DNA of 62,664 nt, filler included. It is 6 parts of 6 records of this genome, joined end to end, with 100 filler letters (N's around TTAATTAATTAA, not from the genome) between each part and the next. Parts side by side here need not be neighbours in the genome. Positions count along the whole stretch, not along the records: positions 1 to 30,680 come from DRR723986_15255; 5 more parts are not named here. One strand, written 5' to 3'. The translations under genes were made by a program, and so were the position numbers. Position 1 is the stretch's first letter. Each line of letters begins with the position of its first letter. The notes beneath the pieces were generated by a model, which saw nothing but the letters and a program-made list of their open reading frames with translations, made no database searches and was not told the origin of the DNA. Shown here piece after piece: positions 1-32,228 of the stretch.

Positions 1-119
1 CGCTTCCAGTTCGGATTTAGCGTTTCTGCGCCTATTCGAGTCGGCTATTCATTGGGTGTGGCACGCTATACGTCCGTGCGATTCGCACAGCAAATGCCCT
101 CTAAGGCGCAAGCGAACAT

Positions 120-1942: not shown

Positions 1943-2183
1943 CGACTCTCCGTTAAAGTGCGTTTACGGGGCGGTGTATCGTCGCTCTTATAGGTTCATG
2001 CGAATTCGAGCCGCACATCGGGCCAAGGAACTTTGCAAAAACTCGCACACTTGCCAACGAATGCCACTTTCGAGAATTTTCGATTTCTTTTGGCCCCATG
2101 TTGAGACAGCTCACGCATTGCTTGTTGAGTCGGCAAGGATACCACCTGCCGCATCAAACCTCCATCTTGTCAGGAATCGAGCA

Positions 2184-16414: not shown

Positions 16415-16490
16415 TCGCACTCGGTCGTATAGAAACCGAGCTTACTCCCCGCCCGCGTTTTGTGCGGACGGTGGAGAAACCTCGTCTAGC

Positions 16491-17231
16491 TTATTGCTTT
16501 CGCGATCGGCGAATCGCAAAGCACGCAGTAGCGAGACCAAGCAACATTGCGCTACCTGGCTCCGGTACAGCCGATAGACCCCGCGACTCAATGAAGTGCT
16601 CTACGCCAGCTTCGAATTGCGCTTCTTCCAAACCACGGTTCAAGACGATACCGAAAGATTCCGAATTGGCGATTCCAGCTCCACTGGAATTGAGCTCTAG
16701 GACGAAACCATACGCTCCGACTGGCGCTGAATCACTGAGCACCCACTCCACGTGCTGGTGGATGTCGCCCCTTCCACCGCTTCCTGCGATCTCGCCCGTT
16801 GCACGATCAATAATGTTGCGGAACGCACCATCGACAAACGATGCTTCAGCGTGAGTCGCACCGGCTTGGGTGAGGATATTGTTTGGCGAAGCGGTGGCGT
16901 GCTCGAAGGTAATGCTTGCGTCGGTCGTCGCCTCTGCAGCGCCATTCCAATAGTACAAGCTACCGAGGATATCGTAGCCCATGTAATCAAGTGCATTGAT
17001 CCCCAGACCGTCCGAAACTTCCGAAATGAAGCCAGGGTCGTCTGTTCCAAAGGTCCCAGCAACATCAGCAAAGCTACCTTCAAAAATGCGACCCTCGCTA
17101 CCGAATTCGACATCAACCATCGAATCAACGTAGCTGAATTCGATATCAGAGTGACCGTGCTGAGCTAGGGAACTACGAGCCCCCAAGCAGCTCAAGGCCG
17201 CGATCGCGAACACAAAAACAAAACGTTTCAT
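16491..17231 (-). CDS. PEP-CTERM surface protein with His motifs (putative metal-binding)
   Basis: Signal peptide; mature N-terminus QHGHSD; DDPGF; GDIHQH; C-terminal VPEPGSAMLLGLATACFAIRRSRKQ. Confidence 0.85.
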   Translation of the reverse strand: MKRFVFVFAIAALSCLGARSSLAQHGHSDIEFSYVDSMVDVEFGSEGRIFEGSFADVAGTFGTDDPGFISEVSDGLGINALDYMGYDILGSLYYWNGAAEATTDASITFEHATASPNNILTQAGATHAEASFVDGAFRNIIDRATGEIAGSGGRGDIHQHVEWVLSDSAPVGAYGFVLELNSSGAGIANSESFGIVLNRGLEEAQFEAGVEHFIESRGLSAVPEPGSAMLLGLATACFAIRRSRKQ

Positions 17232-17291
17232 TTGTAACTCCAGTTGAAAAACAAAAAGTGATTTGATGCCGCCCCCAAACAGCAGCGGATT

Positions 17292-17876
17292 CTAATGATC
17301 ATGATCGGGCAGGATTGGTCGCCCCACTGGCGTCAACGACTTGGGTGGAGGATCCCCTTTGGCGAGAGCTCTAATCGCGGCTGCAACATACTGCTCACGG
17401 ACGTTCCCTGGGTCAAAAGTGCTATCGTCCATCGGACCAGAGAAACGGAGCTCACCATCACGATCAAATACAAAAAAGCTGGGCGTATGTGATGCTGACA
17501 ATCGCGATGCAATTACCTGCTCACAGTCGTCAAGTACGGGAAACGTAAACTTCGCCTCGCGATTGAACTCTTCTAACCCTCCATGCGAAACCATCACGGC
17601 TGCGAAGGCCGAAGACTTCGACGAACTCGCCAAACGTTTGAGACGCGTTAAAACTCCAGCGGTTGCCTGGCAGTCGGCAGACAACACGCATACGACGCTT
17701 GAATCAGCACCAGAGCTAAGCGCTTCGCCCAACTCGGCATTCAACTCGATCAGTTCGGACAGGGCAGGCGCCGGCTGGTCGCTCTCAACTGAGAACATTG
17801 AATTTGCCTCGCTCGCCGGTCTCGAACAGGCAGCCAGCCCCGTGAGGGAGATCATGAAAACAAGACGAAACATCAC
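17292..17876 (-). CDS. Redoxin (AhpC/TSA-like) domain lipoprotein
   Basis: Lipobox LAAC; FTFPVLDD...A-HTPSFFVFDRDGELRFSGPMDD; ends PDHDH; start overlaps the DUF1559 stop codon. Confidence 0.75.
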   Translation of the reverse strand: MMFRLVFMISLTGLAACSRPASEANSMFSVESDQPAPALSELIELNAELGEALSSGADSSVVCVLSADCQATAGVLTRLKRLASSSKSSAFAAVMVSHGGLEEFNREAKFTFPVLDDCEQVIASRLSASHTPSFFVFDRDGELRFSGPMDDSTFDPGNVREQYVAAAIRALAKGDPPPKSLTPVGRPILPDHDH

Positions 17877-18967
17877 TGCGGCAACTCCACAACTTCACCA
17901 TCGTTGCGTGATCCGAGAAGCCACCATACTTCTGCATCGATTCCCTGGCTGATGAAATGCACACTGCCGTCGCCGAGGGCCGCATTCACGCCCCCGGTGT
18001 GATTGCTACTTGGCGTAATAATGTTGTCGCCAGTGCCTTCGCCACCGTGGTAATGGCAATTCCACTTGTTTGGCGAATACACATGCATGTACGTCGGCGC
18101 GGTCAAGGTCCACCCACTAATCCAAGAACGTCCCTGAAAGGCCGAATGGAAAGTATCATGGTGTGCCAACTCGCAATTCCGCTGTATCTCGCTTTGCACA
18201 CGTGCCCGCTCAGTTGTGTGACGGGAAACCATTCGCTGATCCGCGTTGCGAATCTCGCGAGACGATTGCGCCTGCATTATCAAACGCTCTGAAATTGCGA
18301 CGGTGTTGGTAAGCCCATCGGTTACGTCCGCCATACGAACTTTGCGAACATGCCAGGGTACCTGCTCGGCTGGAGAATTCATTGCCATTAGGCCATTGTG
18401 AGTTGCATTGGGTGCGGAGCGTTCGCCGCGCACACCAAGCGACCACGAAGGCCAACCCGCATTGGCCGCGTAGCTATCGGATGCGGGATTAGCCGACCCC
18501 ATGACAATTTGATTTTGGTGGTTCGCAGGATCCGAGGGACAAAGAAAAGCCGGAATGACGGCGCGAGACGCAGCGGCATTCACGTGCGATTCACTAATCG
18601 TTGCACCGTAGATATTGTTACACTGTCCCGAGTCAGCCATTTCGACGCGGAAATCGATACTGTTGTACAGATTGCCTTGTTCAATCTGCGGCAGAATGTA
18701 GGCCATCCAGCTATAGAACCCAGACGTACATCCCGCACCTGAACGCGTGCCGCCGCCGGTCATGGTCATCGGGAATGTTTTGTGAATATCGTGGTAGTTG
18801 TGAAAAGCCAGGCCTAGCTGCTTCAAATTGTTCGAACACTGCATCCGCCGAGCCGCTTCTCTGGCAGCTTGTACTGCGGGCAATAGCAGTCCCACCAGAA
18901 TGCCGATGATGGCAATAACCACGAGCAACTCCACCAGCGTGAAGGCTCTTCGCGTTTGTGAATTCAT
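17873..18967 (-). CDS. DUF1559 prepilin-type N-terminal cleavage/methylation protein (copy 1)
   Basis: [60 protein letters not shown]9-DG end (HTGGVNAALGDG). Confidence 0.95.
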   Translation of the reverse strand: MNSQTRRAFTLVELLVVIAIIGILVGLLLPAVQAAREAARRMQCSNNLKQLGLAFHNYHDIHKTFPMTMTGGGTRSGAGCTSGFYSWMAYILPQIEQGNLYNSIDFRVEMADSGQCNNIYGATISESHVNAAASRAVIPAFLCPSDPANHQNQIVMGSANPASDSYAANAGWPSWSLGVRGERSAPNATHNGLMAMNSPAEQVPWHVRKVRMADVTDGLTNTVAISERLIMQAQSSREIRNADQRMVSRHTTERARVQSEIQRNCELAHHDTFHSAFQGRSWISGWTLTAPTYMHVYSPNKWNCHYHGGEGTGDNIITPSSNHTGGVNAALGDGSVHFISQGIDAEVWWLLGSRNDGEVVELPQ

Positions 18968-19319
18968 AAAAGCAATCCTCGCCAACAATAATTTGAATCG
19001 TCTGCGATCATGGTGACGTCAGATGATTCGGTGACCAATTCGCCGAAGCCAGGAGAATGGCTGCGGCGGACAAATCACCGATTCAATTTCGTTAAGGTGC
19101 TCCACCGCGAGCAGCCAAGTGGCCAGGGTTTGGTCGGACCGTTGACCTGAATGACCGAAACACGGTGGAACATATGGAAGAGGCGCATCGTTCTAAATCG
19201 ATGCATCTCTAAGCACTTTGGTCAATCCGCAAATCTTCATTGACTCACCGAGCGCACAACGTTGCGCCGGAGAGAAAGAGATGCGACGATTCGGCTAAGA
19301 GACCGAATCCAAGTGGGAA

Positions 19320-19739
19320 CTAAGCCGGCGGCCCTCGAGAGACAGCAACTGGCAAGTCTCCAGCGGTCGCACGTGCTAGTGGCTGGGCCGCACGATGTGC
19401 AGGCGGGCTGCCACAGCAGTTGAGGACCGGGAAAACCACGTCAGAAGAGTAGACGACATACAGTGCCTGACACACAACGCAGTGATCTTCATCATGCGAC
19501 GGGTGCTCGCCCTGCTTGGAATTGTCGGCGTCCGCCAAAGAAACCGACACGGGCCGGCAGCCCGAGTGGCTGCATCCACAAGGAGATGGGCCGAGGCGTT
19601 CCGGAGCATCCGCATGCTCGTACGTACGTGCCGCCGCGCCATGACAAGTTATGCCATGATGATGGATCGCGACCAGATTGCTCAATGCAACCTGCCCACA
19701 GATCAAAAGCGTTAAGAGGGTACGGACCGAGGGCGCCAT
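19320..19739 (-). CDS. His/Cys-rich small protein with CxxC and C-terminal RGPP (DUF2946/CruR-like candidate leader peptide, copy 1)
   Basis: Hydrophobic N-terminus, HHH, CGCSHSGC, HDEDHCVVC, ends VSRGPPA*. Confidence 0.8.
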   Translation of the reverse strand: MAPSVRTLLTLLICGQVALSNLVAIHHHGITCHGAAARTYEHADAPERLGPSPCGCSHSGCRPVSVSLADADNSKQGEHPSHDEDHCVVCQALYVVYSSDVVFPVLNCCGSPPAHRAAQPLARATAGDLPVAVSRGPPA

Positions 19740-20122
19740 TTGGGCTCAACAGTGGAACTTACTGGGTTTTGCAACGGTCCGACCAAGACTTGCGTTGTTC
19801 ACTGTGACTCGTCACCCTGCATTTGTCAAGTCCGACGAGATCTGTCGCAGATGCTATTCAGTAGCCCGCTTCGAAGTAGATGGGGGTTGCGAATACACTC
19901 CTCGAAATCCACGTCCCTTTGGAACTCGCAACCTCCTCCACCAGCCTCGATTTATAGCAGAACCCAGTAAATCCTCTCGTGACATATGATCTGGCGAAAC
20001 ATCCCAGCACTTTGAACGTAGGAAACGAAGCCTGTCACGAATGCGTGAACTATAGTTGACTGCGGGAAATTGCTCCGTCGACCCATGGCAAGCCTATTCC
20101 TCACTCGAGGTGCCTCTTCTCC

Positions 20123-20830
20123 ATGCACAACCATGCTCACGAACTGACCCTCGGTCTAGCCTTTTTCCTAGGCGCAGTTCACGCTCTCGAGCCAGGACAT
20201 GGCAAAACGGCAATGCTCGTTTATCTTTCCGGAGAGCGGAAGGGGTTTTGGCACCCCTTCGTCATGGGGATTTCCAGCGGCATCGCTCACTCAGTTTCCC
20301 TGATTGCGATCGCCATCGTTGTCCACCTGACGCAGCATGCTGTCACGGGAGATCACCACCACGAAGACGCTCGCGTCGTTTCGGCGATGCAGTGGATCAG
20401 CGGTTTGCTTGTATTGGCGATCGGTTGCTGGATGCTGGTGGGAGCAATTCGATCCAAACCGTCGCAATGTAGCTGCAAGAACCATCGTGGCGATGCTGAT
20501 TGCGAGCCAAAGCCACTTGGCAAACGTCGCAGCTACTCGATGAGCGCACTGCTGGGAGTCGCCTTCGGGCTTCTGCCGTGCCCCTCGGCCCTGGCGGCTT
20601 ACTTCACAAGCATGTCGACAGGCGCGCCGGTTGCAGCTTACGCAGTGATTGGGCTCTTTGCTGCTGGAATTGCCAGTTCACTCACTTCAGTAGGCTTACT
20701 GGTCCAACGTTTCGGCGATCGACTGTACAACCGCGAAAGCCGCCTAGCACGTCTGCCTTGGCCGCACATTCGAGCCATCCTGATCCTTTGCGTGGGCGCT
20801 CTCTACACGTATCGAGCTGCTATGGCTTAG
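20123..20830 (+). CDS. RcnA-like nickel/cobalt transporter (NiCoT-related)
   Basis: HALEPGHGKT, HS motif, GDHHHED loop, GLLPCPSAL; about 6 TM helices; N-terminal MHNHAH. Confidence 0.85.
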   Translation: MHNHAHELTLGLAFFLGAVHALEPGHGKTAMLVYLSGERKGFWHPFVMGISSGIAHSVSLIAIAIVVHLTQHAVTGDHHHEDARVVSAMQWISGLLVLAIGCWMLVGAIRSKPSQCSCKNHRGDADCEPKPLGKRRSYSMSALLGVAFGLLPCPSALAAYFTSMSTGAPVAAYAVIGLFAAGIASSLTSVGLLVQRFGDRLYNRESRLARLPWPHIRAILILCVGALYTYRAAMA

Positions 20831-22067
20831 GCGTGGGCTCTGACTGGCGAGGCATCGGAAAGATGATTTCGGCTCGTCGGAATGTCTCCGGGTCCAGCTT
20901 CTTGAATTCTGCCAACGCCTCCTTGGCGGGCGCGAGCGGACACCGACGCAAATAGTTGATTATCGGAAGCCGCATATACTGCTGATGCGGTTCGATATTG
21001 CGAAATCGTTTCGACAACTTTGAAACATAACGCCAGTCTTCCAGCCGCGCGAGGTCAGGGATCACGACATCTGCGAAGGCCGAGTCATCCAGCAAGACTG
21101 CCAGCGATGCACAGATATCCTTCTTATCGAGCACAGAGAACTCTTGGGTGTGAGCTCGAAGCGCGGAGACGGTCGAGAATCGCGCTGAGACTTCTGAATT
21201 TTTGTTGCCAAGTATTTTGTCCGTCACGTCCCGCAATGCATCCTTGCCGCCGAGCAGCAGATAGCACGAGATCGCGGCATCGAGCCCCAATTCATCCCGC
21301 TCGATCCCTGGAGTGGCTTTGCCTTGGGGGTTGAACACCATGCGTTTGACGAAATCAAGATCTTCCCTGCTGCCAGCAAGCCCTAAGACAGTCCAGTAGA
21401 ATCGCCGGAAGCTAAGTGATGTTTCCGCGTCGGCCAAACGCTTCTTAACTTCGCCCAGATCAACACCCTTAACCCAGGGCTGCAACTGTTCAACGGAAAC
21501 GGTTGCGAAAGCGTTGTAGGCATCTCGCTGCACCCAAGAATCACTCGATGCAAGCCCGCGCCAATACAGATCCAGCCATTGGTGCTCCGTGTCTCCACCC
21601 TCAGCGGCCCGACCAGCAAGCTTCTGCTGCAGGTCAACAACCGACTGAATGTACTCAAGCGCAGTCTTAGCGAGAGGTTCCGAAGGCGCCCAGTCAACCC
21701 CTTCGCTATCTCCAATCCCGAACATGAGCACCTTGTTGCCGTTGGCGAACTCCTTGTCTGAGTAGGCGCTCACCAGACTCCCCGGCGCAAAAACTGGCTT
21801 ACCCGAGAGCAACTTCGATTTGAATACTGTCTCGACTTCAAATGTGTGAATCGAAAACTCGGCGTCTTCCGCCGCAACCTGCTTGCAGTTTGCCAAAGCG
21901 ACGAAGTCTAGCTGTGAAAGTTCTTCGCGCAGGCTACTGGCAAGGGCAGTACAAAAAGGGCAAGCAACTACGCGAGCGGCTGAGAATGCAATGCAAATCC
22001 AAACCGCCATCGTGAATTGTAAGACACGGCATGAAACACGAAGTTTCGTTGGTTGCTGCACAGACAT
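20820..22067 (-). CDS. Secreted hypothetical protein with CPFC at the predicted mature N-terminus and a helical C-terminal region
   Basis: Signal peptide ending VVA-CPFC; long open frame; overlaps the 3' end of the convergent transporter gene by 11 nt. Confidence 0.7.
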   Translation of the reverse strand: MSVQQPTKLRVSCRVLQFTMAVWICIAFSAARVVACPFCTALASSLREELSQLDFVALANCKQVAAEDAEFSIHTFEVETVFKSKLLSGKPVFAPGSLVSAYSDKEFANGNKVLMFGIGDSEGVDWAPSEPLAKTALEYIQSVVDLQQKLAGRAAEGGDTEHQWLDLYWRGLASSDSWVQRDAYNAFATVSVEQLQPWVKGVDLGEVKKRLADAETSLSFRRFYWTVLGLAGSREDLDFVKRMVFNPQGKATPGIERDELGLDAAISCYLLLGGKDALRDVTDKILGNKNSEVSARFSTVSALRAHTQEFSVLDKKDICASLAVLLDDSAFADVVIPDLARLEDWRYVSKLSKRFRNIEPHQQYMRLPIINYLRRCPLAPAKEALAEFKKLDPETFRRAEIIFPMPRQSEPTPKP

Positions 22068-22193
22068 AGTGTTACCGCCAATGTGTTCGCTACCGAACGG
22101 AGTTAGCCAATCGACAACGCCAGACTGTAGTCGATGAGCTCATTTATTCTGGACTCACAAAACTGCGCTGCGAAATTTGCCGCGAAATCTTGC

Positions 22194-22670
22194 TCACGAC
22201 TTCCGCCTGCCGGCGGTCACCACACCTGAGCGACCTTGGATTTCAGCAACGATCAACAGACCGCAGCCTACCATGGGAAGCGCATGACAGAGAACACTGG
22301 ATAGCACCGGAGGAGCAGAAGATGGATACCCAGCGATGTAAGCAACCAGCTCGTCGCAACAACCCTCCGACGGTTGAACACCGGGCAAAAGAAGCACCAA
22401 CGCAAGTATGGTCACACTATAGCTGTGCTTCCAGCCAGAAACCACAGTTCTACAGAATATCCCGATGGTGCCCAAGAGAACCAGGGCCACAATAGCGAAT
22501 TGGTTCAGGGTTTGAAAACGAAGCACCGACTCTGCCAAAGCCATCGAATCCAATGCCAGCAACAGCACGACGCTTGAGTAACCCAGCACTCCACCAGCGA
22601 TCCACGGCAGAAACTCATCTGTCAAAAAGCCCGTCTTAACGGGCGTCCTTCGACGCACTGGTGAAGCCAT
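22194..22670 (-). CDS. Hypothetical membrane protein
   Basis: ATG 22670 lies 2 nt after the upstream stop; about 4 hydrophobic segments; GCCD and LCH motifs. Confidence 0.55.
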   Translation of the reverse strand: MASPVRRRTPVKTGFLTDEFLPWIAGGVLGYSSVVLLLALDSMALAESVLRFQTLNQFAIVALVLLGTIGIFCRTVVSGWKHSYSVTILALVLLLPGVQPSEGCCDELVAYIAGYPSSAPPVLSSVLCHALPMVGCGLLIVAEIQGRSGVVTAGRRKS

Positions 22671-22672
22671 CG

Positions 22673-24562
22673 CTACACAACTCCCAGGGCGGAATAGATG
22701 TAGCTGGTGAACAACTGGTAGGAATCTCTCCAAAAGACCAACACTAGGATCGTGCTGGTAAAGATCCACAGAGTTGCTGGCCATGACCTTGCGGCACCAA
22801 AACCCACTCGACCCGGCAGACCGCCGACGAGTGGTATTTGGCAAATGATCGACACCACTGCCGCCACAGCCAGTACAAGCAAGACCGTTTCATAACCGCA
22901 GGCTACGCCGACGAGAGCAAGGCTGAACGCCACGTTGGCTCGGTCATTCGGTTCGCGTGCAGCCCCTCCATATAGCTCGTTGGCAGGAGCACCTTCAACG
23001 GACACGTCACTCTGCTCACCTTCACACTCATCCGCACCGAGAGAACCCGCGCCGCTCGCGACTCCACCAGATTCACTTCCATGCGTCACCTGATCCCTCG
23101 CCTCATCTTGCTCGGTGTTGCCCGCTACCGCCTCTAACTTTGCAGCCGCACTGGCCGATACATCGACAAGATCGCCTGACGCGGCCGTGGAACTCGTTGA
23201 TCGAGGCGACAAAAACCAAAGCACTGGAGACGCTGCCAGGCCGACTAAGCCACCGAGCAAAGTAACAACGAGACTAGCTGGAATTGACGACGAGCCCCAA
23301 TCCTTCCAAGCGGGTGTGATCGGATTTAGGTGCCCAAACAGACTCACGAGGATCGCGGCAAGACCAATCGCGCACAGTCCACTTCGAAGCGGAACGCGAA
23401 ACTGATCGTAGTTGATCATCCCCCAGGCCAGCAGGGTTACCAGGACGATCATGTGGAAGAAATACAAACTGAGCAGATCCCACTTCGTATACAACAGGAT
23501 CCACACGATCCCGCTGTAAGTGTTCTCGGTCCGCACTGGCAAATTGGCTCCACCGGAGAGCAACTCGCGGAAATAGAAGATCACGAACACCAGGCCGACA
23601 ACGGCCTCGATGATTGGGTAGCGAGCTGAAATAGGAACACTACAGTTCCGGCATTTGCCACCCAGGCGAAGCCACGCCAGCACCGGAATGTTATCGATGC
23701 CAGAGATTTCTTCTTGACAGTTTGGGCAAGCCGACGAGGGCAGGAACAACGGGCGCCTGCGCGGCAGACGGAATATCACAACATTGAGAAAACTACCAAT
23801 GCTGGCTCCTGCGGCCAGGAAGATCAGCATCACTGCAACGGACACAGCGTGTAGACGAACCGATTCGGCAATTGTCATATCGGTCAGTCGCTTGATGCTG
23901 GCGGTCGACGGCCAAATCAAGTCTTGGATCATGGACACCGTAGGAACGGCAACCAGGTAGATAAACGCTGCGGATGCTAAGACGATCGCGACAGCATATC
24001 GTGACCAAAACGGTCGCGTTAAAGCCTCCTGCGGAAGGCCCTCTACCTGGTCCTCCGGTGCAATTACACTCTCACCTTGCACATCCATCTCATCTAGCCC
24101 TCCCGAACCGGAGGCTTCTGTGGTTGCTACTGCATTGCGGCGGTTGTGCACGCTCGCCGCCATTAACACAAAACTGAAACTGATCAGCGCATACAGAGCG
24201 AACAGGTGAGCCTGACAGTGCTCCCAAGTGAACAGACCTGCTGTGGAAACCACGATAACCACGGCCGTCATCGCTACGGAGCTCCATCGCTGGTTCGTCG
24301 CGGCCACGACCGCCAAAGCGAGAACGAAGCAAAGTCCGCAGATCAAGGCGGCGACTGCCCAGTGAGTAGGCTCGGTCGACAACTGACAGGTAAGCTGATG
24401 AAGGAGGACCGCAGCGGCCCCACAAGCAATGGAAGGCCACGCAGCTAAGCACGTATAGGTCAACCAAAGACTTGCAGTCCCACTGTTGCGACTCGGTGTA
24501 TGGTCAGCGGGAAGCTGGCTTCCGGTCTCAGCCCAATACGAAGTTGTAGATGTAGATTGCAT
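22673..24562 (-). CDS. A24 prepilin-peptidase-like membrane protein with an N-terminal multi-TM extension; catalytic motifs degenerate
   Basis: IGSFLNVVIFRLP...SACPNC...DNIPVLAWLRLGGKCRNC.VPISARYP (A24 N-terminal 4-Cys domain); start placed at ATG 24562 after AGGA. Confidence 0.8.
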   Translation of the reverse strand: MQSTSTTSYWAETGSQLPADHTPSRNSGTASLWLTYTCLAAWPSIACGAAAVLLHQLTCQLSTEPTHWAVAALICGLCFVLALAVVAATNQRWSSVAMTAVVIVVSTAGLFTWEHCQAHLFALYALISFSFVLMAASVHNRRNAVATTEASGSGGLDEMDVQGESVIAPEDQVEGLPQEALTRPFWSRYAVAIVLASAAFIYLVAVPTVSMIQDLIWPSTASIKRLTDMTIAESVRLHAVSVAVMLIFLAAGASIGSFLNVVIFRLPRRRPLFLPSSACPNCQEEISGIDNIPVLAWLRLGGKCRNCSVPISARYPIIEAVVGLVFVIFYFRELLSGGANLPVRTENTYSGIVWILLYTKWDLLSLYFFHMIVLVTLLAWGMINYDQFRVPLRSGLCAIGLAAILVSLFGHLNPITPAWKDWGSSSIPASLVVTLLGGLVGLAASPVLWFLSPRSTSSTAASGDLVDVSASAAAKLEAVAGNTEQDEARDQVTHGSESGGVASGAGSLGADECEGEQSDVSVEGAPANELYGGAAREPNDRANVAFSLALVGVACGYETVLLVLAVAAVVSIICQIPLVGGLPGRVGFGAARSWPATLWIFTSTILVLVFWRDSYQLFTSYIYSALGVV

Positions 24563-24697
24563 ACTGACACTTTTCCTGAAACGAGACCGCGCCACAGCAG
24601 CTTCGACTGTGGCACGGGGCGTCCGCCATTGGTCACATTGACCTAGCCCAACTAGCGCAACTCATCGTTACATCAAACTGGGCAAACATACCGGGCT

Positions 24698-26026
24698 CTA
24701 GCCACCAACGCTAATCAAACGCGTTGGCGTTCCACCAACCTTGAGAGTCGCTTGGACACTCCAGTCTCGAACCGAGATAACGGCGATCGTACCGTCGCCA
24801 GGATTCGAGACCAGCAAGAACCTGCTGCCAATTGCAGAAACACCGTGATGCCCACTGTGTCCCTGAATCTGACTCCGACCAACGCCGAGCGTCTTTATCG
24901 GGCTGGCATCAGACAAGTCTCCATCACGATTCGGATCGAGCTCAACAACGTGCATCTTCTCACCGTCGGCCTCGGCGTTCTCTTCGAATATGACCGCGTA
25001 CATCCTGCCCGCCCGAGTCTTCATGACCGTCGGCGTCAAAGCTGAGTTGCCTTCGCCGATCCCGAGAACCAGCTTTTGGCACGATGGTTTGGGACTCGAG
25101 GCGTCAATCATACAAAGCTCCGCGTCGGTGCCTCGTCCAGCAATGAACAGCACGTACTTCCCAAGGTTGGCAAATGCGCCGGTTCGCTTTGCTGTTCCAC
25201 TTGCATCCTGGCCGAGATCAATGTGGTGGACTTCTTGATCTTGCGAAGGAGCCGCTGTGCTCACCCAGCAAACACCTTCTGAAGGAGCAAAGAATGCTTT
25301 GCCGCTGTTGTACGTCGCCCCGTGAATTCCTCCTGAGGGAAGGAAAAACGAGCGCTCCACGTCGGATCCAGAATCTAGTCCGACGACATCAACCCGCCCC
25401 TTGTTTTCACCATCTCGATCGATCCAGGTCGAGTATCCCACTTTGTTCTTGCTGACGGCCAACGTAATGTGCCCACCGCCGGCTGAGAAGAACTGGTCAG
25501 GCTTGGAGCCCTTCCTAATGGCACTAGGTTGCACTCGAGTGAAGCCGTTTTTCTTGTCGTTAGCTAAGTACCAGCTATCGCCGTAGTGATACACGTGAGC
25601 GGGATTGCCTTGCTTGTCGTCTAACGTGACAAGCTTGACCGATGGTGCATCATCCAGATGCCAATGAAAGTGGTCCCCGTGAGACTCCTTCGTCGCACCG
25701 CTGTTAATGGCTACCCATCCACTTTGGAAGTTGCCGTCGTCATCGTCGCGTACGCCCAGCAGCACGAGCTCATCAATCGCCTTCATCTGGACAAGCATAT
25801 GACGCTCGGGATCAACTTCCGGATGCCCAGCCAATTCCTGCTTCTCGAGCGAATACTTGTCGCCCCTTTTTAAGTCGCCCCAATGGACCGTCTGCGTCTG
25901 GGTATCCTGCCAAAAAACCCTGGCGATCGTGCGCGGTTTCTTACCACTGGATGCTTCTTGCGCAGTGCCGACCGTGCTTCCGCAGGCAACGGCTGCACAG
26001 AGCGCTAATAGAACTTTTGATTTCAT
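24698..26026 (-). CDS. Secreted beta-propeller with clustered His motifs (AztD-like metal chaperone candidate)
   Basis: Signal peptide; ESHGDHFHWH, GNPAHVY, GGGHITLA, GIHGA, GHSGHHG; ends VGGTPTRL. Confidence 0.65.
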   Translation of the reverse strand: MKSKVLLALCAAVACGSTVGTAQEASSGKKPRTIARVFWQDTQTQTVHWGDLKRGDKYSLEKQELAGHPEVDPERHMLVQMKAIDELVLLGVRDDDDGNFQSGWVAINSGATKESHGDHFHWHLDDAPSVKLVTLDDKQGNPAHVYHYGDSWYLANDKKNGFTRVQPSAIRKGSKPDQFFSAGGGHITLAVSKNKVGYSTWIDRDGENKGRVDVVGLDSGSDVERSFFLPSGGIHGATYNSGKAFFAPSEGVCWVSTAAPSQDQEVHHIDLGQDASGTAKRTGAFANLGKYVLFIAGRGTDAELCMIDASSPKPSCQKLVLGIGEGNSALTPTVMKTRAGRMYAVIFEENAEADGEKMHVVELDPNRDGDLSDASPIKTLGVGRSQIQGHSGHHGVSAIGSRFLLVSNPGDGTIAVISVRDWSVQATLKVGGTPTRLISVGG

Positions 26027-26092
26027 ATCCGAATTGCTTTCTGTATTGAATTGAATGTCTTCTCGCTTGTTTCACCGAGAGTCGCGGCTGCG

Positions 26093-27745
26093 CTAGTTAT
26101 CTCGAATGCAGTACAAACGAGTTCCAGTGCGAACAACAATGCTGTCGCCCGACGCGATGGCCCCATAGACGATCGGGTCTCGAGCACTACTACGCGAGCT
26201 GGCTCGGCGGGCGGCAAAGCTCTCAGCCATCGCCTTTAGCTCAGCGGCATCAAGCGCTCCATCGCCGTTGGTGTCGATTCGCGGCAGCATCCTTTTGAAG
26301 TCTTCCGGCACTTCGTCGGCTGACAAGTTGCCATCACCGTTCTTGTCACCACGCATCATGGCGGCCATCATCCCACCACCAGGACGTCGCGTAGCACCTG
26401 AGCCAGAGTCAGATGAGCCCGGTTTGCCTGAGTCGGATGCACCATGCTTAGCGCCTTCAGATTGCCCGTGCTTAGCACCCTCAGATTGACCGTGAGATGA
26501 TTGGCCAGCGGCAGAGTGGCTAGTGGAAGAATGACCGTGCCCGTGCCCTCCGCCGGAGTTCTCAACGTAAGTCTCGGGCTTAGGAGGATTCTCGCTGTCC
26601 CACAACTGATTTGTTGCAATCAACGAGTACTCTTTACCGGCGGCGATCACTTGAGCGGTACCGTTCTTCGCGAAGACGTACAGTCGCCCTTGAGCAGCAA
26701 TTGGTGTCGCCCAGGACTCTCCCGACAGGCGCTTTCGATAACACGTCTCGCCAGTCTCGCCATCGACACAGGTCAGCACGCCGACTTTGTTGATGAAGTA
26801 AACATGACGACCAATTGCGACTGGACTTGCGTAGTCACTGATTGCTCGGTCAGCCCGCCACGCCACTGCCGGTGCACCGGATTCCATACTTGCTAGATCG
26901 ACGCAGCAGTTGGATCGAACCGACCCCTCTTTGGCGAACTCTGGCAATCGCGCTCCGATATAGATGTGGTCGCCAACGGGAGTCGGCGAAGGCACTGAGT
27001 TGCCGTCCAGCCCATCGACAGTCCAGAGTGCTTCACCGTTGCTGGCAGCGTAGGCCGTCAAGCTGCCGGCAGAACTAACAAGAACCTGAGACTTCCCATC
27101 GTGCTCCATAACGACCGGCGACGACCAACTCGAACCAGAAGGCCTCTCAGTTTTCCAATCAATCGCACCGGATTCTTTGTTTACGGCAACTAGATAGCTC
27201 GGTCCCTTGTGCTCAAGATTGAGGAAAAGGTGCGAGTCGTTTTGAGCGGGCGAACTTCCCAGTCCATGGTTGTTCTCGAACTTTCCAAGTTCATCGCTCA
27301 AGTTCCGCTTCCACAACTGCTCGCCAGCGTTACTGACGGCAACAATGTCACCGCTTTCGAAGAACGCGTAGACGCCGCGCTGGTCGGCAACAGGTGTCGG
27401 AGCGGCTCGCGATGCCATGTAGTTCGAAGCCGCTTTGGCCGATGCCTCCACCTCCTGCCGCCAAATCTCCGAACCGTCCTCCAGCGACAGACAAACTATC
27501 GCCAGGGTATCTTTCATCGGCCCAACAACGGCCGTCACGTAGACCTGCCCACCGACGATAACAGGCGTCGACTGACCGTAACCCGGCAGCTCCAACTGCC
27601 ACGCGATGCCGTTACCGGGTTCCCATTGACTCGGTAGCGGGCAGTCGGCTGCGCTGCTACCTCCATTTCGGAAGCTCGTCCAATCCCCCAGCGCGGTCAT
27701 CGGAGACAGCGCTAAGGCGACGAGTGCGATTGTTCTAGTTTTCAT
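26093..27745 (-). CDS. PQQ-binding-like beta-propeller with an inserted His-rich linker and EF-hand pair
   Basis: GDWTSFRNGG, GYGQSTPV, GSSWSSPV, YASPV; insert GHGHGH...DKNGDGNLSADE...DTNGDGALDAAE; ends RTGTRLYCI. Start reassigned to ATG 27745. Confidence 0.85.
   Translation of the reverse strand: MKTRTIALVALALSPMTALGDWTSFRNGGSSAADCPLPSQWEPGNGIAWQLELPGYGQSTPVIVGGQVYVTAVVGPMKDTLAIVCLSLEDGSEIWRQEVEASAKAASNYMASRAAPTPVADQRGVYAFFESGDIVAVSNAGEQLWKRNLSDELGKFENNHGLGSSPAQNDSHLFLNLEHKGPSYLVAVNKESGAIDWKTERPSGSSWSSPVVMEHDGKSQVLVSSAGSLTAYAASNGEALWTVDGLDGNSVPSPTPVGDHIYIGARLPEFAKEGSVRSNCCVDLASMESGAPAVAWRADRAISDYASPVAIGRHVYFINKVGVLTCVDGETGETCYRKRLSGESWATPIAAQGRLYVFAKNGTAQVIAAGKEYSLIATNQLWDSENPPKPETYVENSGGGHGHGHSSTSHSAAGQSSHGQSEGAKHGQSEGAKHGASDSGKPGSSDSGSGATRRPGGGMMAAMMRGDKNGDGNLSADEVPEDFKRMLPRIDTNGDGALDAAELKAMAESFAARRASSRSSARDPIVYGAIASGDSIVVRTGTRLYCIRDN
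26423..26494 (-). repeat. In-frame 24-bp tandem repeat (HGQSEGAK x2 + HGASDSGK)
   Basis: CTTAGCGCCTTCAGATTGCCCGTG (26447-26470) and CTTAGCACCCTCAGATTGACCGTG (26471-26494), plus a diverged copy at 26423-26446. Confidence 0.8.
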
Positions 27746-27786
27746 TCTCTTTATTTCTACTGTATGCAGTGTGTTGTTTTGAACGC

Positions 27787-27856
27787 GCACGGCGCGGCGA
27801 GGCGCCGTGTGAACGCAAAGGCCACCTAAGCCGCTCTTGGGCGAGATGGCCTTTGC
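27787..27856. other. Two adjacent intergenic stem-loops inside the operon
   Basis: GCACGGCGC/GCGCCGTGT (27787-27810) and GCAAAGGCCA/TGGCCTTTGC (27815-27856). Confidence 0.55.
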
Positions 27857-27871
27857 TTTGTCTTTGCGACG

Positions 27872-28291
27872 CTAGAGCCGGCGAACAGCCTTCTTGGGTA
27901 GCTCGATCAGGATCTTTTGCTCACTTGTCGGCCAGCTTAGGGCCAGCGGCGATTTCTCTGGGTCGGACCAAGGAGCTGCCAGACGCCAATCCCCGAGTGA
28001 CTCCACCACGACGCGATACTCAGTCACTTCAGAGCTAGGCACGTTTCCGTCGACAGCCATCATCCCCGCTACTCCAGCGGGGCCGGTAATACCCGTCATA
28101 ACAGGATCCGTTGTGTCCAAAGGAGCGAGCACTACCTGCACGTCAGGTACTGGATGCCCGTCAATCTGCACTTCGACATCGAAGTATGTTTCTTGAACAC
28201 CTCCTGCACCCGAGCAACCGGCGATACAGACAGCAAACAATCCAACTGGGAGAATCAGCGAGAATGCAGCCCGCTGCTTAGAGTTCATCAT
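27872..28291 (-). CDS. Small lipoprotein (carboxypeptidase-regulatory-like fold) of the type that follows DUF1559 genes
   Basis: Lipobox [36 protein letters not shown]; start overlaps the end of the DUF1559 gene. Confidence 0.7.
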
Positions 28292-29321
28292 GGCTGAACG
28301 TCTCCCCACCATTTCGAGAATGCACTGCCCAGTGAACTTGCTGGCTTACGCTGCTGCTAATGAAACGAACACTGCCGTCACCCAGTGCAATGTTTGCACC
28401 ACCGGTGTGCAGGCTGCGGGGTGCGAACCAGCCACGGCCGTGGACGGTAACGTCCGGAATGCGATTGTTGGGTGTCAGGTATCCGTTGGTGACGACCGCG
28501 TAGGGAACACCACGAATCCAAGTTTCACCACGGGTGCCGCGATAGCTACTGATCTCCGATGGAACAACCGCATTCAGGTCGGGATTGCGAATCGTCGCTC
28601 CTCCGATGCTGAAGCCCGGTTGGCCTGGAGGATTGCCGCTTGAACCCGACCACGATGCCAAACGGCGATGAATCAAGTTGCCGACAGGTGGATCAGTGCT
28701 GCGAATTCCGTCGCCGATGAGTGCCTCCGAAAGCATGACCGTATTGGAAGTCCCATCGGTGATGTCACCGAAGCGAGCCCACGAGTTCGTCCAAACAAAT
28801 CCATCTGTTGGGAAGCGGTCATCGTAGTTGGTATCGGTGCCCGAGCCGTAGGAGAACATATAGTTCAACCCTGCGACAGTCACCTCATTTCCAGCCGCGT
28901 CGGTCACCACGCGTGTAGGTTCGGCCGAATCACTAGGGCAAAGGAAGGTCGAGACAACGGTCTGGGCCGCTGGCACGAACAACGGATTGAGGGAAGCTCG
29001 CCAGGGCGGTCCGACATAGAGCGGCTGACTGTAATCAATCAAATTCTCTAAGTTGCCTTGCTCGATGAAAGGCAAGATTCGAGCCTGCGGAGAGAAGGAA
29101 CTCGAACCGGTCAGCCCCGGGAATCGCTTGTATGCAGATTCGTAGTTGTGAGTAGCCAGCGCGAGCTGCTTTAGGTTGTTGGAACACTGCATTCTCCGAG
29201 CGGCTTCGCGTGCCGCCTGAACAGCGGGCAGCAACAGCCCAACAAGAATGCCGATGATGGCGATAACAACTAGTAGCTCCACCAGCGTAAAGCCGTCACG
29301 TTTAAGGGAATGATTTTTCAT
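28278..29321 (-). CDS. DUF1559 prepilin-type N-terminal cleavage/methylation protein (copy 2)
   Basis: [70 protein letters not shown]. Confidence 0.95.
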
Positions 29322-29550
29322 GATTTGTATGACTTATGAATATTGTGTTTTAGGTTTTCTTGGCCCAATAACTCTGGGCCACCAGGAACGTTCAGCGAAG
29401 GGTAATGCCGACCACGTGGGGCGCACGTTGGGTCTTTTGCGGGCACAGCTTCTGCGGAAGCCGCGTCTCTGCGCTGCCACGAAAGCAGATTTTCTCCGAC
29501 CAGACAGAGCGCAATGCTTCTAGCTGTTCAGCGAATCACTACGCAGCGAG

Positions 29551-29611
29551 ATTCGTGCGCAGTAACATTCGTTGCGCAATGACACTCGTTGCGCGATAAC
29601 ACTCGTTGCGC
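29551..29611. repeat. 17-bp tandem repeat, 3 copies plus a partial copy
   Basis: AGTAACATTCGTTGCGC, AATGACACTCGTTGCGC, GATAACACTCGTTGCGC at 29561-29611, preceded by ATTCGTGCGC. Confidence 0.85.
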
Positions 29612-29704
29612 ACATTGGCTCCACTGCATGGAATGGATTCAATGCAACCGTCCGAATCGGAGATAGCAATCAGCGCGTAGCGGAACGCGATAAAGAAACG
29701 TCGT

Positions 29705-30151
29705 CTAGGCAGCGGGGGGACCGCGAGCCTGCTGACAAAGAACGACCTGTGGAACAAGAACATCCACATACGCAGCAAGCGCGACGACCAGCCGGGCATG
29801 CGAAACGCGGGATGAAGCAAGCCCGCGCGATTGAGCCGCGGCATAGAAGTCGCAGATGGAGCACGGCCCGTGATAGTCGGCCGCGGTTATGCCAGATCTG
29901 AAATCGTGAGCAGCCGTCGCACCTTGATGGTGATCGACGTCGGATTTGACAAACGGTGAATTAGTGTGTTCAGAGCGATGCGCATGGCAATCACACTGCT
30001 CGTGCGACGACGGTGCCTGCAGATCGCAAGCAGCATCAGCGCAGCACGCTGCATGTTCATCATGATGGTGATGATGCCAATGAGGCCCAATGGCGACTGG
30101 GATTCCGTAGAACACCAGCAGGGCTATAGAGACTGAACGAGTGTTGAACAC
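29705..30151 (-). CDS. His/Cys-rich small protein with CxxC and C-terminal RGPP (DUF2946/CruR-like candidate leader peptide, copy 2)
   Basis: Hydrophobic N-terminus, HWHHHHHDEH, CC, CDCHAH, HGPCSIC, ends QARGPPAA*. Confidence 0.82.
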   Translation of the reverse strand: MFNTRSVSIALLVFYGIPVAIGPHWHHHHHDEHAACCADAACDLQAPSSHEQCDCHAHRSEHTNSPFVKSDVDHHQGATAAHDFRSGITAADYHGPCSICDFYAAAQSRGLASSRVSHARLVVALAAYVDVLVPQVVLCQQARGPPAA

Positions 30152-30564
30152 CGTTGCTGAGAACTCCGCACATGAAAGATCGTTGTTGAGATCACGGGTG
30201 CGGTCCGACCACTTGTGACTCTACGCACTCCCAAAGGCATCGTCAAGGATGTACTTCTCGAATCTTCTCGATCCGCTCTTCTTTTGTTCTCGGCCAGCTC
30301 CCCGCGATCCAGCAGAGCGCGCACTTCAAACGGCCAGCACCGATGCAACGCCAAGCTCTAACCTGCAACCGCTCCCGCGGCTTGAGAGACGAAGAACTTT
30401 CGGTGCTACCGCCCAACCCGCAGCCACTCAAGCAGATCACGGGGCCTTTCAATCACCGTAGGCGGAGCCTTTGTGTCCTCGGATGCCCAGGCAGCCGAAC
30501 CCTGCACGGCTCTGCGAACCCTGGTTCTGTTGAGTGCGTCTGGCGCAGGCCCGCCGGGCTACTT

Positions 30565-30606
30565 ACTAGCGCAGATTCACTAGCGCAGATTCACTAGCGC
30601 AGATTC
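30565..30606. repeat. Perfect 14-bp tandem repeat x3 (ACTAGCGCAGATTC)
   Basis: Read directly from the sequence. Confidence 0.95.
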
Positions 30607-30680
30607 AATCGTTGACTTGACCTGCTGATTGAACCGGGGCAACTCAGTTCCTCACCTTGAGTCGCCTTCTTCGTAGTGGA

Positions 30681-30780
30681 NNNNNNNNNNNNNNNNNNNN
30701 NNNNNNNNNNNNNNNNNNNNNNNNTTAATTAATTAANNNNNNNNNNNNNNNNNNNNNNNNNNNNNNNNNNNNNNNNNNNN
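30681..30780. other. Artificial contig linker (N44-TTAATTAATTAA-N44)
   Basis: N runs around a cassette with stops in all six frames; gene content and GC change across it. Confidence 0.98.
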
Positions 30781-30858
30781 CGCGATGGCGCCGCCACAGC
30801 GCCAGACGAAGTCGGCTGCATGGGCGCTGATGACAAGTGCAGTCTTGGAAGCTGGCAT
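30781..30858 (-). CDS. galB: 5' fragment of 4-oxalomesaconate hydratase (PIG-L family), cut by the contig end; absent from the ORF track
   Basis: Hand translation MPASKTALVISAHAADFVWRCGGAIA matches the GalB N-terminal pattern ALVVSAHxADFVWRxGGAIA; AGGGA RBS; only 26 codons visible. Confidence 0.75.
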
Positions 30859-30940
30859 ATCCGGTTTCCCTGTAATTGTTACTTGGCCGGATATTCCCGT
30901 CTCTTCCCGCAGAAGGCCAATTCAAAGGGACGCAACGCCT

Positions 30941-30957
30941 CATAAGTTTTGGCTATA
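30941..30957 (-). promoter_or_regulatory. Putative LysR operator, copy 1 (TATAGCCAAAACTTATG on the - strand)
   Basis: T-N11-A box between divergent galB and LysR genes; 15/17 identical to the site at 32275-32291. Confidence 0.6.
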
Positions 30958-31031
30958 AGGTCTTCCGTCAAAGCTTCTCTGCTGGCAGTCTATGAGGCAG
31001 GATCGTTGCGCTTACACAGTGCGTAACAAAG

Positions 31032-32228
31032 ATGCCCGCGAGACGCCGACAGGAGAAAACGTTGGAATTCAATCTCCGTCATCTGCGCGTTTTTCTGTCC
31101 GCATCGCGCAACTCATCCATCACGAAGGCAGCGGAGGAATGCCGCCTGTCGCAACCGGCGGTAACTCAGGCCATCAACAAGCTGGAGGACCTGCTGGAAA
31201 CGGCACTCTTTCAGCGGTCGGCTCATGGCGTCTTCGTCTCCCAGGTCGGCAAGGTGTTCGGACGCCGAGTTGAGCGGGCGCTTGGCCTCATCGACGCCAG
31301 TTTTCTGGCGACCGCTCCCCGTTTGCAGGTAACTGCCACCGCTGCCCAACTCCGTGCCTTCGTCGCCGTTTGCGATTGCGCCAACTTTACCCTTGCCGCG
31401 CGGCGGCTCGGCATTGCCCAGCCGACTGTGCACCGGGCTGTCAGTCAGCTTGAGAAGGAGGCTCTGAAACCGCTTCTGGAGCGCACATCGAACGGAATCG
31501 TGCCGAGCCGTTCAGGACAGAGCCTCGCCCGCGCAGCCGATCTGATGTTCGCTGAGCTCGCCCAGGCCGCGATGGAAATGTCGGAACTGAAGGGTCGGGA
31601 AAGCGGGCGTATAGTCATCGGCGCCATGCCCTTGTCACGTGCTTATATCCTGCCATCGGTGGTAGCCGCCTTCCGAAAGGACCGGCCGCGGATCGAGCTG
31701 CAAGTCCTGGACGGGCCCTATGATGAGCTGATCCGGGAATTGCGGCGCGGTGCTGTCGATTTTCTCGTCGGCGCCCTGCGCAATCCGCTGCCGATCGAAG
31801 ACGTCGAACAAAGCGCGCTCTTCAATGACAGTCTGACGGTGATGGCTCGCAAGGATCATCCGCTGGCCGGCAGAAGGGGCCTTATCGTTGACGACCTCAG
31901 GTCCTGGCCCTGGGTCGTTGCCGCCCGAGGCACGCCGACCCGCGGCCACTTCGATCGCCTGTTCAAGGAGAATGGCGGCCAGTTGCCGGAAAGTGTCGTG
32001 GAAAGCGGCTCGATGATCTTTGCCAGGGAGTTGCTGGCGTTGAGCGATCATCTTGCCTGTGTCTCCAGCCTCCAGGCAGGCCGCGAAATCGCGGCGGGCC
32101 GCATCGTCGCCTTGCCGTTTCGACTGCCGGACACTTCCCGTCCCATCGGCATCACCACTCGCACGGGCTGGGAGCCGACGGCCAGCCAGAAAGCGCTCCT
32201 GGCGCTGCTTCATCGCTACGACCACTGA
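31032..32228 (+). CDS. LysR regulator with two tandem HTH domains (GalR/LigR type)
   Basis: HTH1 NLRHLRVF...SITKAAEECRLSQPAVTQAINKLE; HTH2 QLRAFVAV...FTLAARRLGIAQPTVHRAVSQLE; divergent from galB; true start may be TTG 31062. Confidence 0.9.
   Translation: MPARRRQEKTLEFNLRHLRVFLSASRNSSITKAAEECRLSQPAVTQAINKLEDLLETALFQRSAHGVFVSQVGKVFGRRVERALGLIDASFLATAPRLQVTATAAQLRAFVAVCDCANFTLAARRLGIAQPTVHRAVSQLEKEALKPLLERTSNGIVPSRSGQSLARAADLMFAELAQAAMEMSELKGRESGRIVIGAMPLSRAYILPSVVAAFRKDRPRIELQVLDGPYDELIRELRRGAVDFLVGALRNPLPIEDVEQSALFNDSLTVMARKDHPLAGRRGLIVDDLRSWPWVVAARGTPTRGHFDRLFKENGGQLPESVVESGSMIFARELLALSDHLACVSSLQAGREIAAGRIVALPFRLPDTSRPIGITTRTGWEPTASQKALLALLHRYDH

Follow-up and report, generated by a model that had tools for sequence, protein, structure and literature searches.

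What kind of gene ends in RGPP one residue before its stop codon and stands directly upstream of a gene for a DUF1559 pseudopilin-like protein? The question was raised by an open reading frame (ORF) of 139 amino acids (aa), here termed leader 1, on the minus strand of a stretch of planctomycete DNA of 62,664 nucleotides (nt). This whole stretch, called the window throughout, is composed of six parts of six records of the genome joined end to end, and the part that holds leader 1, positions 1 to 30,680, comes from record DRR723986_15255. DUF1559 pseudopilin-like proteins constitute a very large, functionally uncharacterised planctomycete gene family. We consider it probable that leader 1 belongs to the regulatory leader genes of CruR type and serves as a nascent-chain sensor, not as the source of a protein needed in itself. 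By analogy with CruR (Bp2923) of Bordetella pertussis, the prototype of DUF2946 (Roy et al. 2022, PMC9426467), it would most likely sense metal or thiol redox state, stall the ribosome at RGPP, and gate the DUF1559 operon that follows. In the case of CruR, copper acting via CXXC is described as relieving the arrest, upon which Rho terminates transcription before the downstream transporter gene (PMC9426467).

The reading frame of leader 1

The first-pass annotation of leader 1 had described an export signal, a His/Cys cluster, and a CVVC placed 44 residues before RGPP, with the stop one residue past the motif. On translation, both distances proved exact: 44 residues lie between CVVC (residues 87 to 90) and RGPP (residues 135 to 138), and Ala139 alone separates RGPP from the TAG stop codon. 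The His/Cys cluster was also found, and the export signal holds as a predicted hydrophobic segment, TLLTLLICGQVALSNLVAI, at residues 7 to 25, with a 19-residue Kyte-Doolittle mean of 1.93 and with Arg6 immediately before it. The composition of leader 1 includes 9 Cys and 10 His. AlphaFold2, supplied with a 23-sequence alignment, predicted a helix at residues 5 to 40, with predicted local distance difference test (pLDDT) values of 81 to 92 across the first 30 residues; beyond this transmembrane (TM) helix the model was poorly ordered and contained no ordered domain, and the mean pLDDT was 62.8. Assignment of leader 1 as a zinc-binding anti-sigma factor (HxxxCxxC) was rejected by eye, as the His lies at position -5 instead of -4 and export is predicted for the protein.

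Such C-terminal motifs are rare in the window. Over its six frames (125,328 positions), RGPP occurs four times and RAPP twice, and only 3 of the 873 stop-to-stop frames of at least 40 aa carry R[AG]P[PG] within their last 8 residues. These are leader 1, a second ORF of like architecture (leader 2), and a frame of 67 codons at 61128..61331 (-). The third ends in RAPPHWER, runs antisense inside an ORF of 1854 aa (56891..62455), lacks a CxxC at the required distance, and is most likely due to chance. Leader 2 lies about 10 kb from leader 1, so that both are found in one 11-kb stretch. A composite pattern, CxxC-(40..47)-R[AG]PP-(0..10)-stop, was then defined, with the same pattern containing A[AG]PP as the control. 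The search space was the window together with 80 metagenomic loci obtained by a scan with both DUF1559 proteins, in total 387,077 bases and 3083 frames of at least 60 aa. The composite pattern was matched by three of these frames, all three directly upstream of a same-strand DUF1559 gene, and the control pattern by none of them.

Near-identical strains were present in contigs from four DNA runs and were compared over a 1101-base stretch; no RNA run was listed with the locus. Among the differences listed (52 more occur over the same stretch), at least nine were substitutions inside the leader 1 ORF, of which seven were synonymous, one changed the stop codon from TAG to TAA, and one was S4P. Insertions and deletions among the differences listed occurred at three places in the spacer behind the ORF (19119/19120, plus 5 nt inserted at 19273) or before the ORF (19881) and never within it, and none of the listed variants touched the codons of CVVC and RGPP. 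Because seven synonymous changes and one stop-to-stop change stand against a single non-synonymous one, the pattern argues that the leader 1 frame is translated and under purifying selection.

The same data bear on the possibility that leader 1 arose by chance as an open frame in GC-rich intergenic DNA. Other frames do contain overlapping ORFs of about 100 aa, and the exact leader 1 sequence was absent from a collection of 15 billion proteins. However, this reading is contradicted by the synonymous substitution pattern, by the confinement of the composite pattern to positions before DUF1559 genes, by the existence of leader 2 and 28 relatives of the same architecture, and by a homolog, P0001, which was the only one returned when 1.84 billion representatives were searched with leader 1 (E value 4e-6, 35% identity). 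We therefore regard a chance origin as extremely improbable.

Relatives and the length of the spacer

Leader 1 alone, used in a word-indexed homolog search, gave nothing at an E value of ≤0.01 among 29 candidates. P0001 shares the blocks CGCxHxGCR and HDExxCxxCQ with leader 1 and has a spacer of 44 residues and RGPP followed by VVG; the segments conserved between the two are HAD, CGCxHxGCR, and HDE. A further leader was recognised at one of the metagenomic DUF1559 loci, L056, as an ORF of 118 aa with a TM segment, a HEHGCDH..CCGH cluster, and CPIC-44-RAPP-VV-stop, located 125 nt before the DUF1559 gene. The synteny evidence thus comprises the two loci of the window and L056, and the pairing of a leader with DUF1559 recurs independently. 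Profile searches with the leader sequences yielded P0002-P0021 and then P0022-P0028. With P0001 and the two leaders of the window, this gave 30 relatives, 23 of which formed the alignment A5, leaving 7 further relatives. Among the sources named are a Planctomycetaceae metagenome-assembled genome (MAG) for P0017 and Pirellula sp. SH-Sr6A for P0028. A metagenome scan with another alignment, A2, matched 460 stretches and contained no relatives, and leader 2 and P0002 had no match in plasmids by tblastn. Of 49 genome-contig stretches matched with A2, the sole one to pass tblastn (L001, from a Myxococcales MAG, over 16 residues) contained no CxxC...RGPP ORF and was discarded as spurious.

The length of the spacer between CxxC and the Arg of the arrest core was 44 residues in 20 of the 30 relatives, 42 in nine, and 45 in one, and the relatives fell into three subfamilies, each with its own exact spacer length. 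The core itself was RGPP or RAPP in 29 of them and RASP in one, with tails of 1 to 9 residues. Both Cys residues of CxxC were invariant in all 23 sequences of A5 and were also present in the 7 further relatives, while the R and the last P of the core were invariant in A5. A Cys directly before the core (PPCRAPP) was kept in all 18 leaders of the L056 type, which are within P0002-P0021. In the group of leader 2, consisting of 10 sequences (leader 2, P0009, P0010, and P0022-P0028), a Cys at position -4 to the core was seen in three (leader 2, P0009, and P0010).

Within the leader 2 group, the distance from the TM segment to CxxC ranged from 49 to 94 residues, yet the spacer was 42 residues in 9 of the 10. 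The spacer sequences of this group were only 24% identical on average (ungapped), with a minimum of 10%, and leader 1 and P0001 shared 16% identity over their 44 spacer residues. Because the length is fixed and the sequence is free, the data point to a constraint on distance, between the arrest site and a sensor outside the ribosomal tunnel, and not to a folded domain. In this respect the alignments support the main expectation from a ruler that runs from CxxC to the arrest core. Leader 1 is a real ORF, its motifs and spacer length are conserved, and its synteny with DUF1559 holds.

The fixed spacer also bears on whether leader 1 could be a finished small protein, membrane-anchored or secreted, that binds metal as a chaperone or in the manner of a metallophore, with RGPP lacking any regulatory role. 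Its richness in Cys and His, the purifying selection acting on it, and the genes for secreted proteins all around would suit such a protein. A fold, however, would not be expected to leave only motifs and spacing, with the rest 16 to 24% identical at fixed length, which is the behavior of a ruler, and AlphaFold2 found no ordered domain past the TM helix. In addition, many phyla are described as avoiding RGPP more than any other tetrapeptide (PMC12992588), yet RGPP or RAPP is kept close to the stop in nearly every relative. We consider a finished protein distinctly improbable.

Gene neighborhoods of the two leaders

Exactly two genes of the window have prepilin-type N termini. Both are DUF1559 genes, and each has a leader directly upstream on the same strand (Table 1). 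For the first, NCBIfam reported an H-X9-DG protein with a prepilin N-terminal domain. The leaders are separated from these genes by spacers of 352 and 383 nt, which fit the "long intergenic distances" of cruR operons (PMC9426467). The leader 1 spacer was predicted to fold with a minimum free energy (MFE) of -147.1 kcal/mol (z score -4.92), and none of 100 shuffled sequences was equally stable; that of leader 2 was less clearly stable (z score -2.52). A scan of both spacers showed no sigma-70-like site on the gene strand and no terminator-like site within, and an Rfam scan of 16000-31500 gave no matches at an E value of ≤1. Pairing between the stall site and the start codon appeared in one MFE structure; it was absent from the pair probabilities in larger context and from the leader 2 and L056 loci and was rejected.

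Table 1. Positions of the leaders, their parts, and the surrounding features in the window
Feature	Positions	Strand	Basis or remark
Leader ORF 1, 139 aa	19320..19739	-	ORF list and translation of parts
N-terminal hydrophobic segment of leader 1, predicted export signal or signal anchor	19665..19721	-	Kyte-Doolittle, AlphaFold2
His/Cys cluster HHHG..CH..EHAD..CGCSHSGC	19557..19664	-	Translation
CVVC of leader 1	19470..19481	-	Translation
44-residue spacer ("ruler") from CxxC to arrest core	19338..19469	-	Translation
RGPP arrest core (predicted) of leader 1	19326..19337	-	Translation
Ala139 and TAG stop	19320..19325	-	Translation; TAA in a close strain
Leader 1-DUF1559 spacer, 352 nt, strongly structured RNA (predicted)	18968..19319	-	Folding versus shuffles
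DUF1559 pseudopilin-like gene 1, 364 aa from ATG 18967	17873..18967	-	Pfam SBP_bac_10/DUF1559 1.3e-59, N_methyl 8.3e-07
Thioredoxin-fold lipoprotein, 4-nt overlap with the DUF1559 stop	17292..17876	-	Pfam AhpC-TSA 6.6e-05, below cut-off
PEP-CTERM protein, last gene of putative operon 1	16491..17231	-	Pfam PEP-CTERM 2e-05; NCBIfam PEP_CTERM
NicO/DsbD_2-type transporter (RcnA-like), N terminus MHNHAHE, divergent from leader 1	20123..20830	+	PF03824 3.9e-09
Possible leader 1 promoter, TTGACA-17 nt-CACAGT, ~62 nt before leader 1	19801..19829	-	By eye; absent from scan listing
TGGTCGGACCG, first copy, upstream of the leader 1 ATG by 36-46 nt	19775..19785	-	Exact-match search
TGGTCGGACCG, second copy, inverted, inside the leader 1 spacer	19131..19141	+	Exact-match search
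TGGTCGGACCG, third copy, 6 nt downstream of the leader 2 promoter-like -10	30201..30211	-	Exact-match search
Leader 2 promoter-like site, TTGACG-17-TAGAGT, ~67 nt before leader 2	30246..30218	-	Promoter scan
Leader ORF 2, 148 aa: TM segment, HWHHHHHDEH, CSIC, 42-residue spacer, RGPP, AA, stop	29705..30151	-	Translation
CSIC of leader 2	29852..29863	-	Translation
RGPP of leader 2	29714..29725	-	Translation
Leader 2-DUF1559 gene 2 spacer, 383 nt, three 17-nt tandem repeats	29322..29704	-	RNA folding, repeat search
DUF1559 pseudopilin-like gene 2	28278..29321	-	Pfam DUF1559 5.3e-67, N_methyl 1.5e-07
Same-strand gene string downstream of DUF1559 gene 2	20820..28312	-	Pfam/NCBIfam
Small lipoprotein	27872..28312	-	After DUF1559 gene 2
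BamB/PQQ-like propeller with His-rich GHGHGH stretch and EF-hands	26093..27790	-	Downstream of leader 2
442-aa secreted protein with GDHFHWH motif	24698..26026	-	Weak AztD (zinc metallochaperone) match
Prepilin-peptidase-like membrane protein, 640 aa	22673..24595	-	A24 N-terminal domain 1.7e-29, residues 263-342

An 11-mer, TGGTCGGACCG, which contains the palindrome GGTC-N-GACC, occurs in three exact copies in the 62.7-kb window, all of them at the leader loci. Allowing a single mismatch gave six matches where 1.6 were expected, and none of 100 shuffles reached six. The inverted copy in the leader 1 spacer forms the core of a perfect 15-nt inverted repeat with 19772-19786, 627 nt apart. Two of the copies lie near the predicted promoters. 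The element may be the operator of a common regulator, or it may act as an RNA element or in long-range RNA pairing.

Two sets of tandem repeats were observed around leader 2. The three 17-nt repeats in its spacer lie at 29556-29612, and the unit on the gene strand is GCGCAACGAGTGT followed by four variable bases. No other place in the window has the pattern (3 matches, with 1.1 expected), and 12 of 100 shuffles also reached three. About 420 nt upstream of leader 2, near the contig end, a 14-nt unit starting with ACTAGCGCAGATTC is present in three perfect tandem copies (30565-30607).

Downstream of the second DUF1559 gene, the genes are separated by gaps of 66 to 126 nt or overlap, and they probably form one operon, which is closed by two genes of unknown function. 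The 442-aa protein of this string matched AztD with an E value of 5.3e-5 and 22 bits, where the cut-off is 400, and phmmer found no match for it in the PDB. No peptidase A24 catalytic-domain model was matched in a Pfam scan by the 640-aa prepilin-peptidase-like protein, which might process the DUF1559 product of its own gene string. At the other locus, the divergent NicO/RcnA-like transporter scored 45.6 bits against a cut-off of 195 with the NCBIfam nickel/cobalt efflux model. The neighbors of both leaders, as judged from such matches, are hints of a metal theme and no more. Another hint of metal regulation, for some DUF1559 genes, came from the metagenomic locus L020, where a FUR-family gene (1499..2167, plus strand; PF01475, 2.3e-22) lies 334 nt upstream of a same-strand DUF1559 gene.

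The order of genes beyond leader 2 is interrupted by the joining of contigs. Linkers, that is, runs of N around TTAATTAATTAA, were found five times in the window against none expected, with the first at 30681-30780 and the cores at 30725, 36523, 44212, 51384, and 56716. A LysR gene at 31032..32228 was considered as a neighbor of leader 2 and rejected, because the first linker separates the two.

The neighborhoods, together with the composition of the leaders, allow a further alternative to be weighed, namely, that leader 1 is a real arrest leader that monitors periplasmic thiol-disulfide chemistry, or the capacity for secretion or pseudopilin processing, instead of metal. In that case, disulfides among the Cys residues or pulling by the translocon would free the stall and so tune expression of the lipoprotein and the pseudopilin. 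The many Cys residues of leader 1 and the thioredoxin-fold lipoprotein in its operon, with its AhpC-TSA match, speak for thiols, as do published RAPP/RGPP upstream ORFs (uORFs) with conserved Cys pairs before DsbA and thioredoxin genes (PMC12992588) and the model for CutF, which invokes disulfide formation as the releasing force (bioRxiv 10.1101/2025.02.05.636593); the prepilin-peptidase-like gene of the second operon would accord with a link to secretion or processing. However, conserved His clusters accompany the Cys residues (HWHHHHH; HAD, CGCxHxGC, and HDE), and His has no role in a disulfide. Furthermore, the closest characterised relatives are reported to respond to copper, and an RcnA/NicO-like transporter and His-rich secreted proteins are among the neighbors. 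On these grounds we judge the alternative to be unlikely.

Proposed mechanism and known arrest leaders

A kinship with DUF2946, the family of CruR, had been suggested for checking by hmmscan. Members of this family have an export signal or an N-in/C-out anchor in more than 95% of cases, and their spacing from CXXC to RAPP is 45 within one or two residues; homologs in Planctomycetes are given as "a few" (PMC9426467). The anatomical features of the family are all seen in leader 1, namely, a predicted export segment, a CXXC, a C-terminal R-x-P-P, and the spacing. Its place as the first gene, before a long spacer, also agrees, as the downstream genes at both loci are on the same strand and are presumed to be cotranscribed. 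DUF2946 was matched at an E value of ≤1 by 8 of 23 relatives, the best at 7.1e-5, and it was the only family matched by more than three of them. An hhalign comparison with three Myxococcota DUF2946 ORFs, whose spacers are 45, 46, and 47 residues, gave a probability of 73.8% and an E value of 2.9e-5; the 95 aligned columns take in the TM segment, CxxC, and RAPP. In the ESM Atlas, leader 1 lies near clusters of Planctomycetota hypothetical proteins (0.96) and near a cluster with 15% DUF2946 members (0.95).

Several results weigh against a CruR-type switch at this locus. Leader 1 itself reached only 12.6 bits (E value 0.24) with the Pfam model of DUF2946 (PF11162), against a gathering cut-off of 23.7, in an alignment that covers profile positions 20 to 117 of 117; leader 2 gave no match to this model, and neither leader was matched in NCBIfam. 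In the profile-profile comparison, the probability is moderate and three sequences made up the reference alignment. The leader 2 spacer of 42 residues is one residue outside the range of DUF2946. The profiles that found the relatives contained the motifs, so that retention of the motifs was in part selected for, which is not so for the length of the spacer; many of the 30 relatives are close kin, especially those of the L056 type, so that there are effectively three subfamilies. Among the 56 metagenomic DUF1559 loci having 700 nt or more of upstream sequence, L056 was the only one with such a leader, and the pairing therefore concerns a minority of DUF1559 genes. The cargo includes no known metal-homeostasis gene, and on the cruR cargo list as published, only its AhpC_TSA type appears. 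The metal hints from AztD and the RcnA-like transporter are weak, their scores being far below the cut-offs given above. No convincing rut site was recognised; the first 60 nt past the stop have a C fraction of 0.35 and a G fraction of 0.20 and the rest is unremarkable. Folding of the leader 1, leader 2, and L056 loci revealed no robust pairing by which the DUF1559 start would be hidden. Because every anatomical feature agrees but the Pfam score does not reach the cut-off, leader 1 is therefore best described from its sequence as a distant relative that would work like CruR and not as a Pfam-level member. The suggested kinship was thus weakly borne out, by part of the relatives and by the profile comparison, and failed at the level of family membership.

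The steps of the mechanism proposed here, from export and arrest to ligand, polarity, and coupling, are inferred for leader 1. The hydrophobic N terminus would bring the ribosome to the Sec translocon. Arrest would take place at R135-G136-P137-P138, the P site being occupied by Pro137 and the A site by Pro138-tRNA, by analogy with CruR, whose in vitro toeprint places its pair of Pro codons in these two sites (PMC12992588); the same study describes arrest by RGPP as at least as strong as that by RAPP. At this point Cys90 and Cys87 would be 47 and 50 residues from the peptidyl-transferase center, so that CVVC and the Cys/His cluster before it would be placed just outside a tunnel of roughly 30 to 40 residues. 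Binding of a transition metal or formation of a disulfide would alter the force on the chain or its conformation and thereby set the duration of the arrest.

The ribosome arrested on the last codons of leader 1 would stand at the head of the structured spacer, and its dwell time would decide expression of the DUF1559 pseudopilin-like protein, the thioredoxin-fold lipoprotein, and the PEP-CTERM protein. Coupling could occur either by keeping Rho off the transcript, as in the model for CruR, or by remodelling of the spacer RNA, as in the models for SecM and CutF. The polarity of CruR would be favored, with arrest and an operon that is on when metal is scarce and release and an operon that is off when metal is present, only because the cargo resembles genes for acquisition or surface functions rather than for detoxification. 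Leader 2 would gate the second DUF1559 operon likewise; its cluster is rich in His and that of leader 1 in Cys, so that the preferred ligand probably differs.

The contrast between the two loci extends to their neighbors: CGCxHxGC and CVVC of leader 1 are found beside a thioredoxin-fold lipoprotein, and HWHHHHH and CSIC of leader 2 beside an AztD-like protein and a His-rich propeller. As a tentative extension, which we hold to be doubtful, the leaders would be sensors of different metals, DUF1559 would belong to a surface or periplasmic acquisition apparatus induced by scarcity, and TGGTCGGACCG would add a second, transcriptional tier of control. Should leaders switch specific DUF1559 paralogs, the ligand of the leader would reveal a condition under which DUF1559 genes matter. 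Moreover, two diverged leaders, one with a fixed spacer of 44 and the other of 42 residues, offer a natural test of how the distance from sensor to arrest site is tuned. In the literature searched, papers on DUF1559 were few, with none on its regulation, and no relevant paper joined arrest peptides with pseudopilin, H-X9-DG, or Planctomycetes. To our knowledge, the only leaders for which control by metal through the nascent chain has been demonstrated are CruR and CutF, both proteobacterial and both responding to copper.

Among known systems, the ApdA/ApdP and SecM leaders (PMC7897499, PMC10951233), substrates with RAPP or RAGP that monitor the Sec pathway, resemble leader 1 in that a RAPP-type core lies at the C terminus of a small exported leader, with release attributed to force on the nascent chain. 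They differ in preceding sec/yidC genes, where leader 1 precedes DUF1559, and they are not known to have a conserved CxxC or His cluster at a fixed distance. The RAPP/RGPP uORFs surveyed in GTDB, with tests in Streptomyces lividans (PMC12992588), are likewise small and mostly exported and have metal- or thioredoxin-related cargo; in the main text of that paper, DUF1559 or prepilin-type cargo has no occurrence. CutF of Rhodobacter capsulatus (Ozturk et al.), a second member of DUF2946, is an exported nascent-chain sensor, as predicted for leader 1, with Cys ligands, a C-terminal proline arrest, and extra Cys residues that may form disulfides, and it controls the next gene post-transcriptionally, which is also proposed here. 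Its motifs are CxxxC and an EF-P-dependent PPP, whereas those of leader 1 are CxxC and RGPP, which sets leader 1 apart from the CutF type. In CutF, copper induces the stall, which melts a stem-loop and exposes the next gene's ribosome-binding site (bioRxiv 10.1101/2025.02.05.636593), and a detoxifying oxidase is switched on; the cargo of leader 1 suggests the opposite polarity.

The closest likeness is to CruR. It shares with leader 1 an export signal (predicted in leader 1), an invariant CXXC, a fixed spacer (45 residues in CruR, 44 in leader 1), a C-terminal R-x-P-P near the stop, and an AhpC/TSA-like gene; CruR also heads its operon, has a long intergenic region behind it, and is expected from prediction to have little structure (PMC9426467), in all of which leader 1 is similar. 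The differences are that CruR has RAPP with the stop three residues after it, where leader 1 has RGPP and the stop one residue after, and that the cargo of CruR is a TonB-dependent transporter or PepSY_TM gene, where that of leader 1 is a DUF1559 pseudopilin-like gene in a planctomycete host. More broadly, cruR cargo comprises TonB-dependent transporters, PepSY_TM, Sco, PCuAC, YcnI, and CopC, with AhpC_TSA being frequent (PMC9426467). CruR acts on copper and through Rho, and leader 1 is likened to it from sequence. The type of switch is already known from CruR and CutF and is not of a new kind. What is distinctive of the window is the presence of two leaders that differ in ligand cluster and in spacer length (44 and 42) and share a promoter-proximal 11-nt element, and the locus would extend the CruR/CutF architecture to a planctomycete, with a stronger RGPP core and wholly different cargo, DUF1559.

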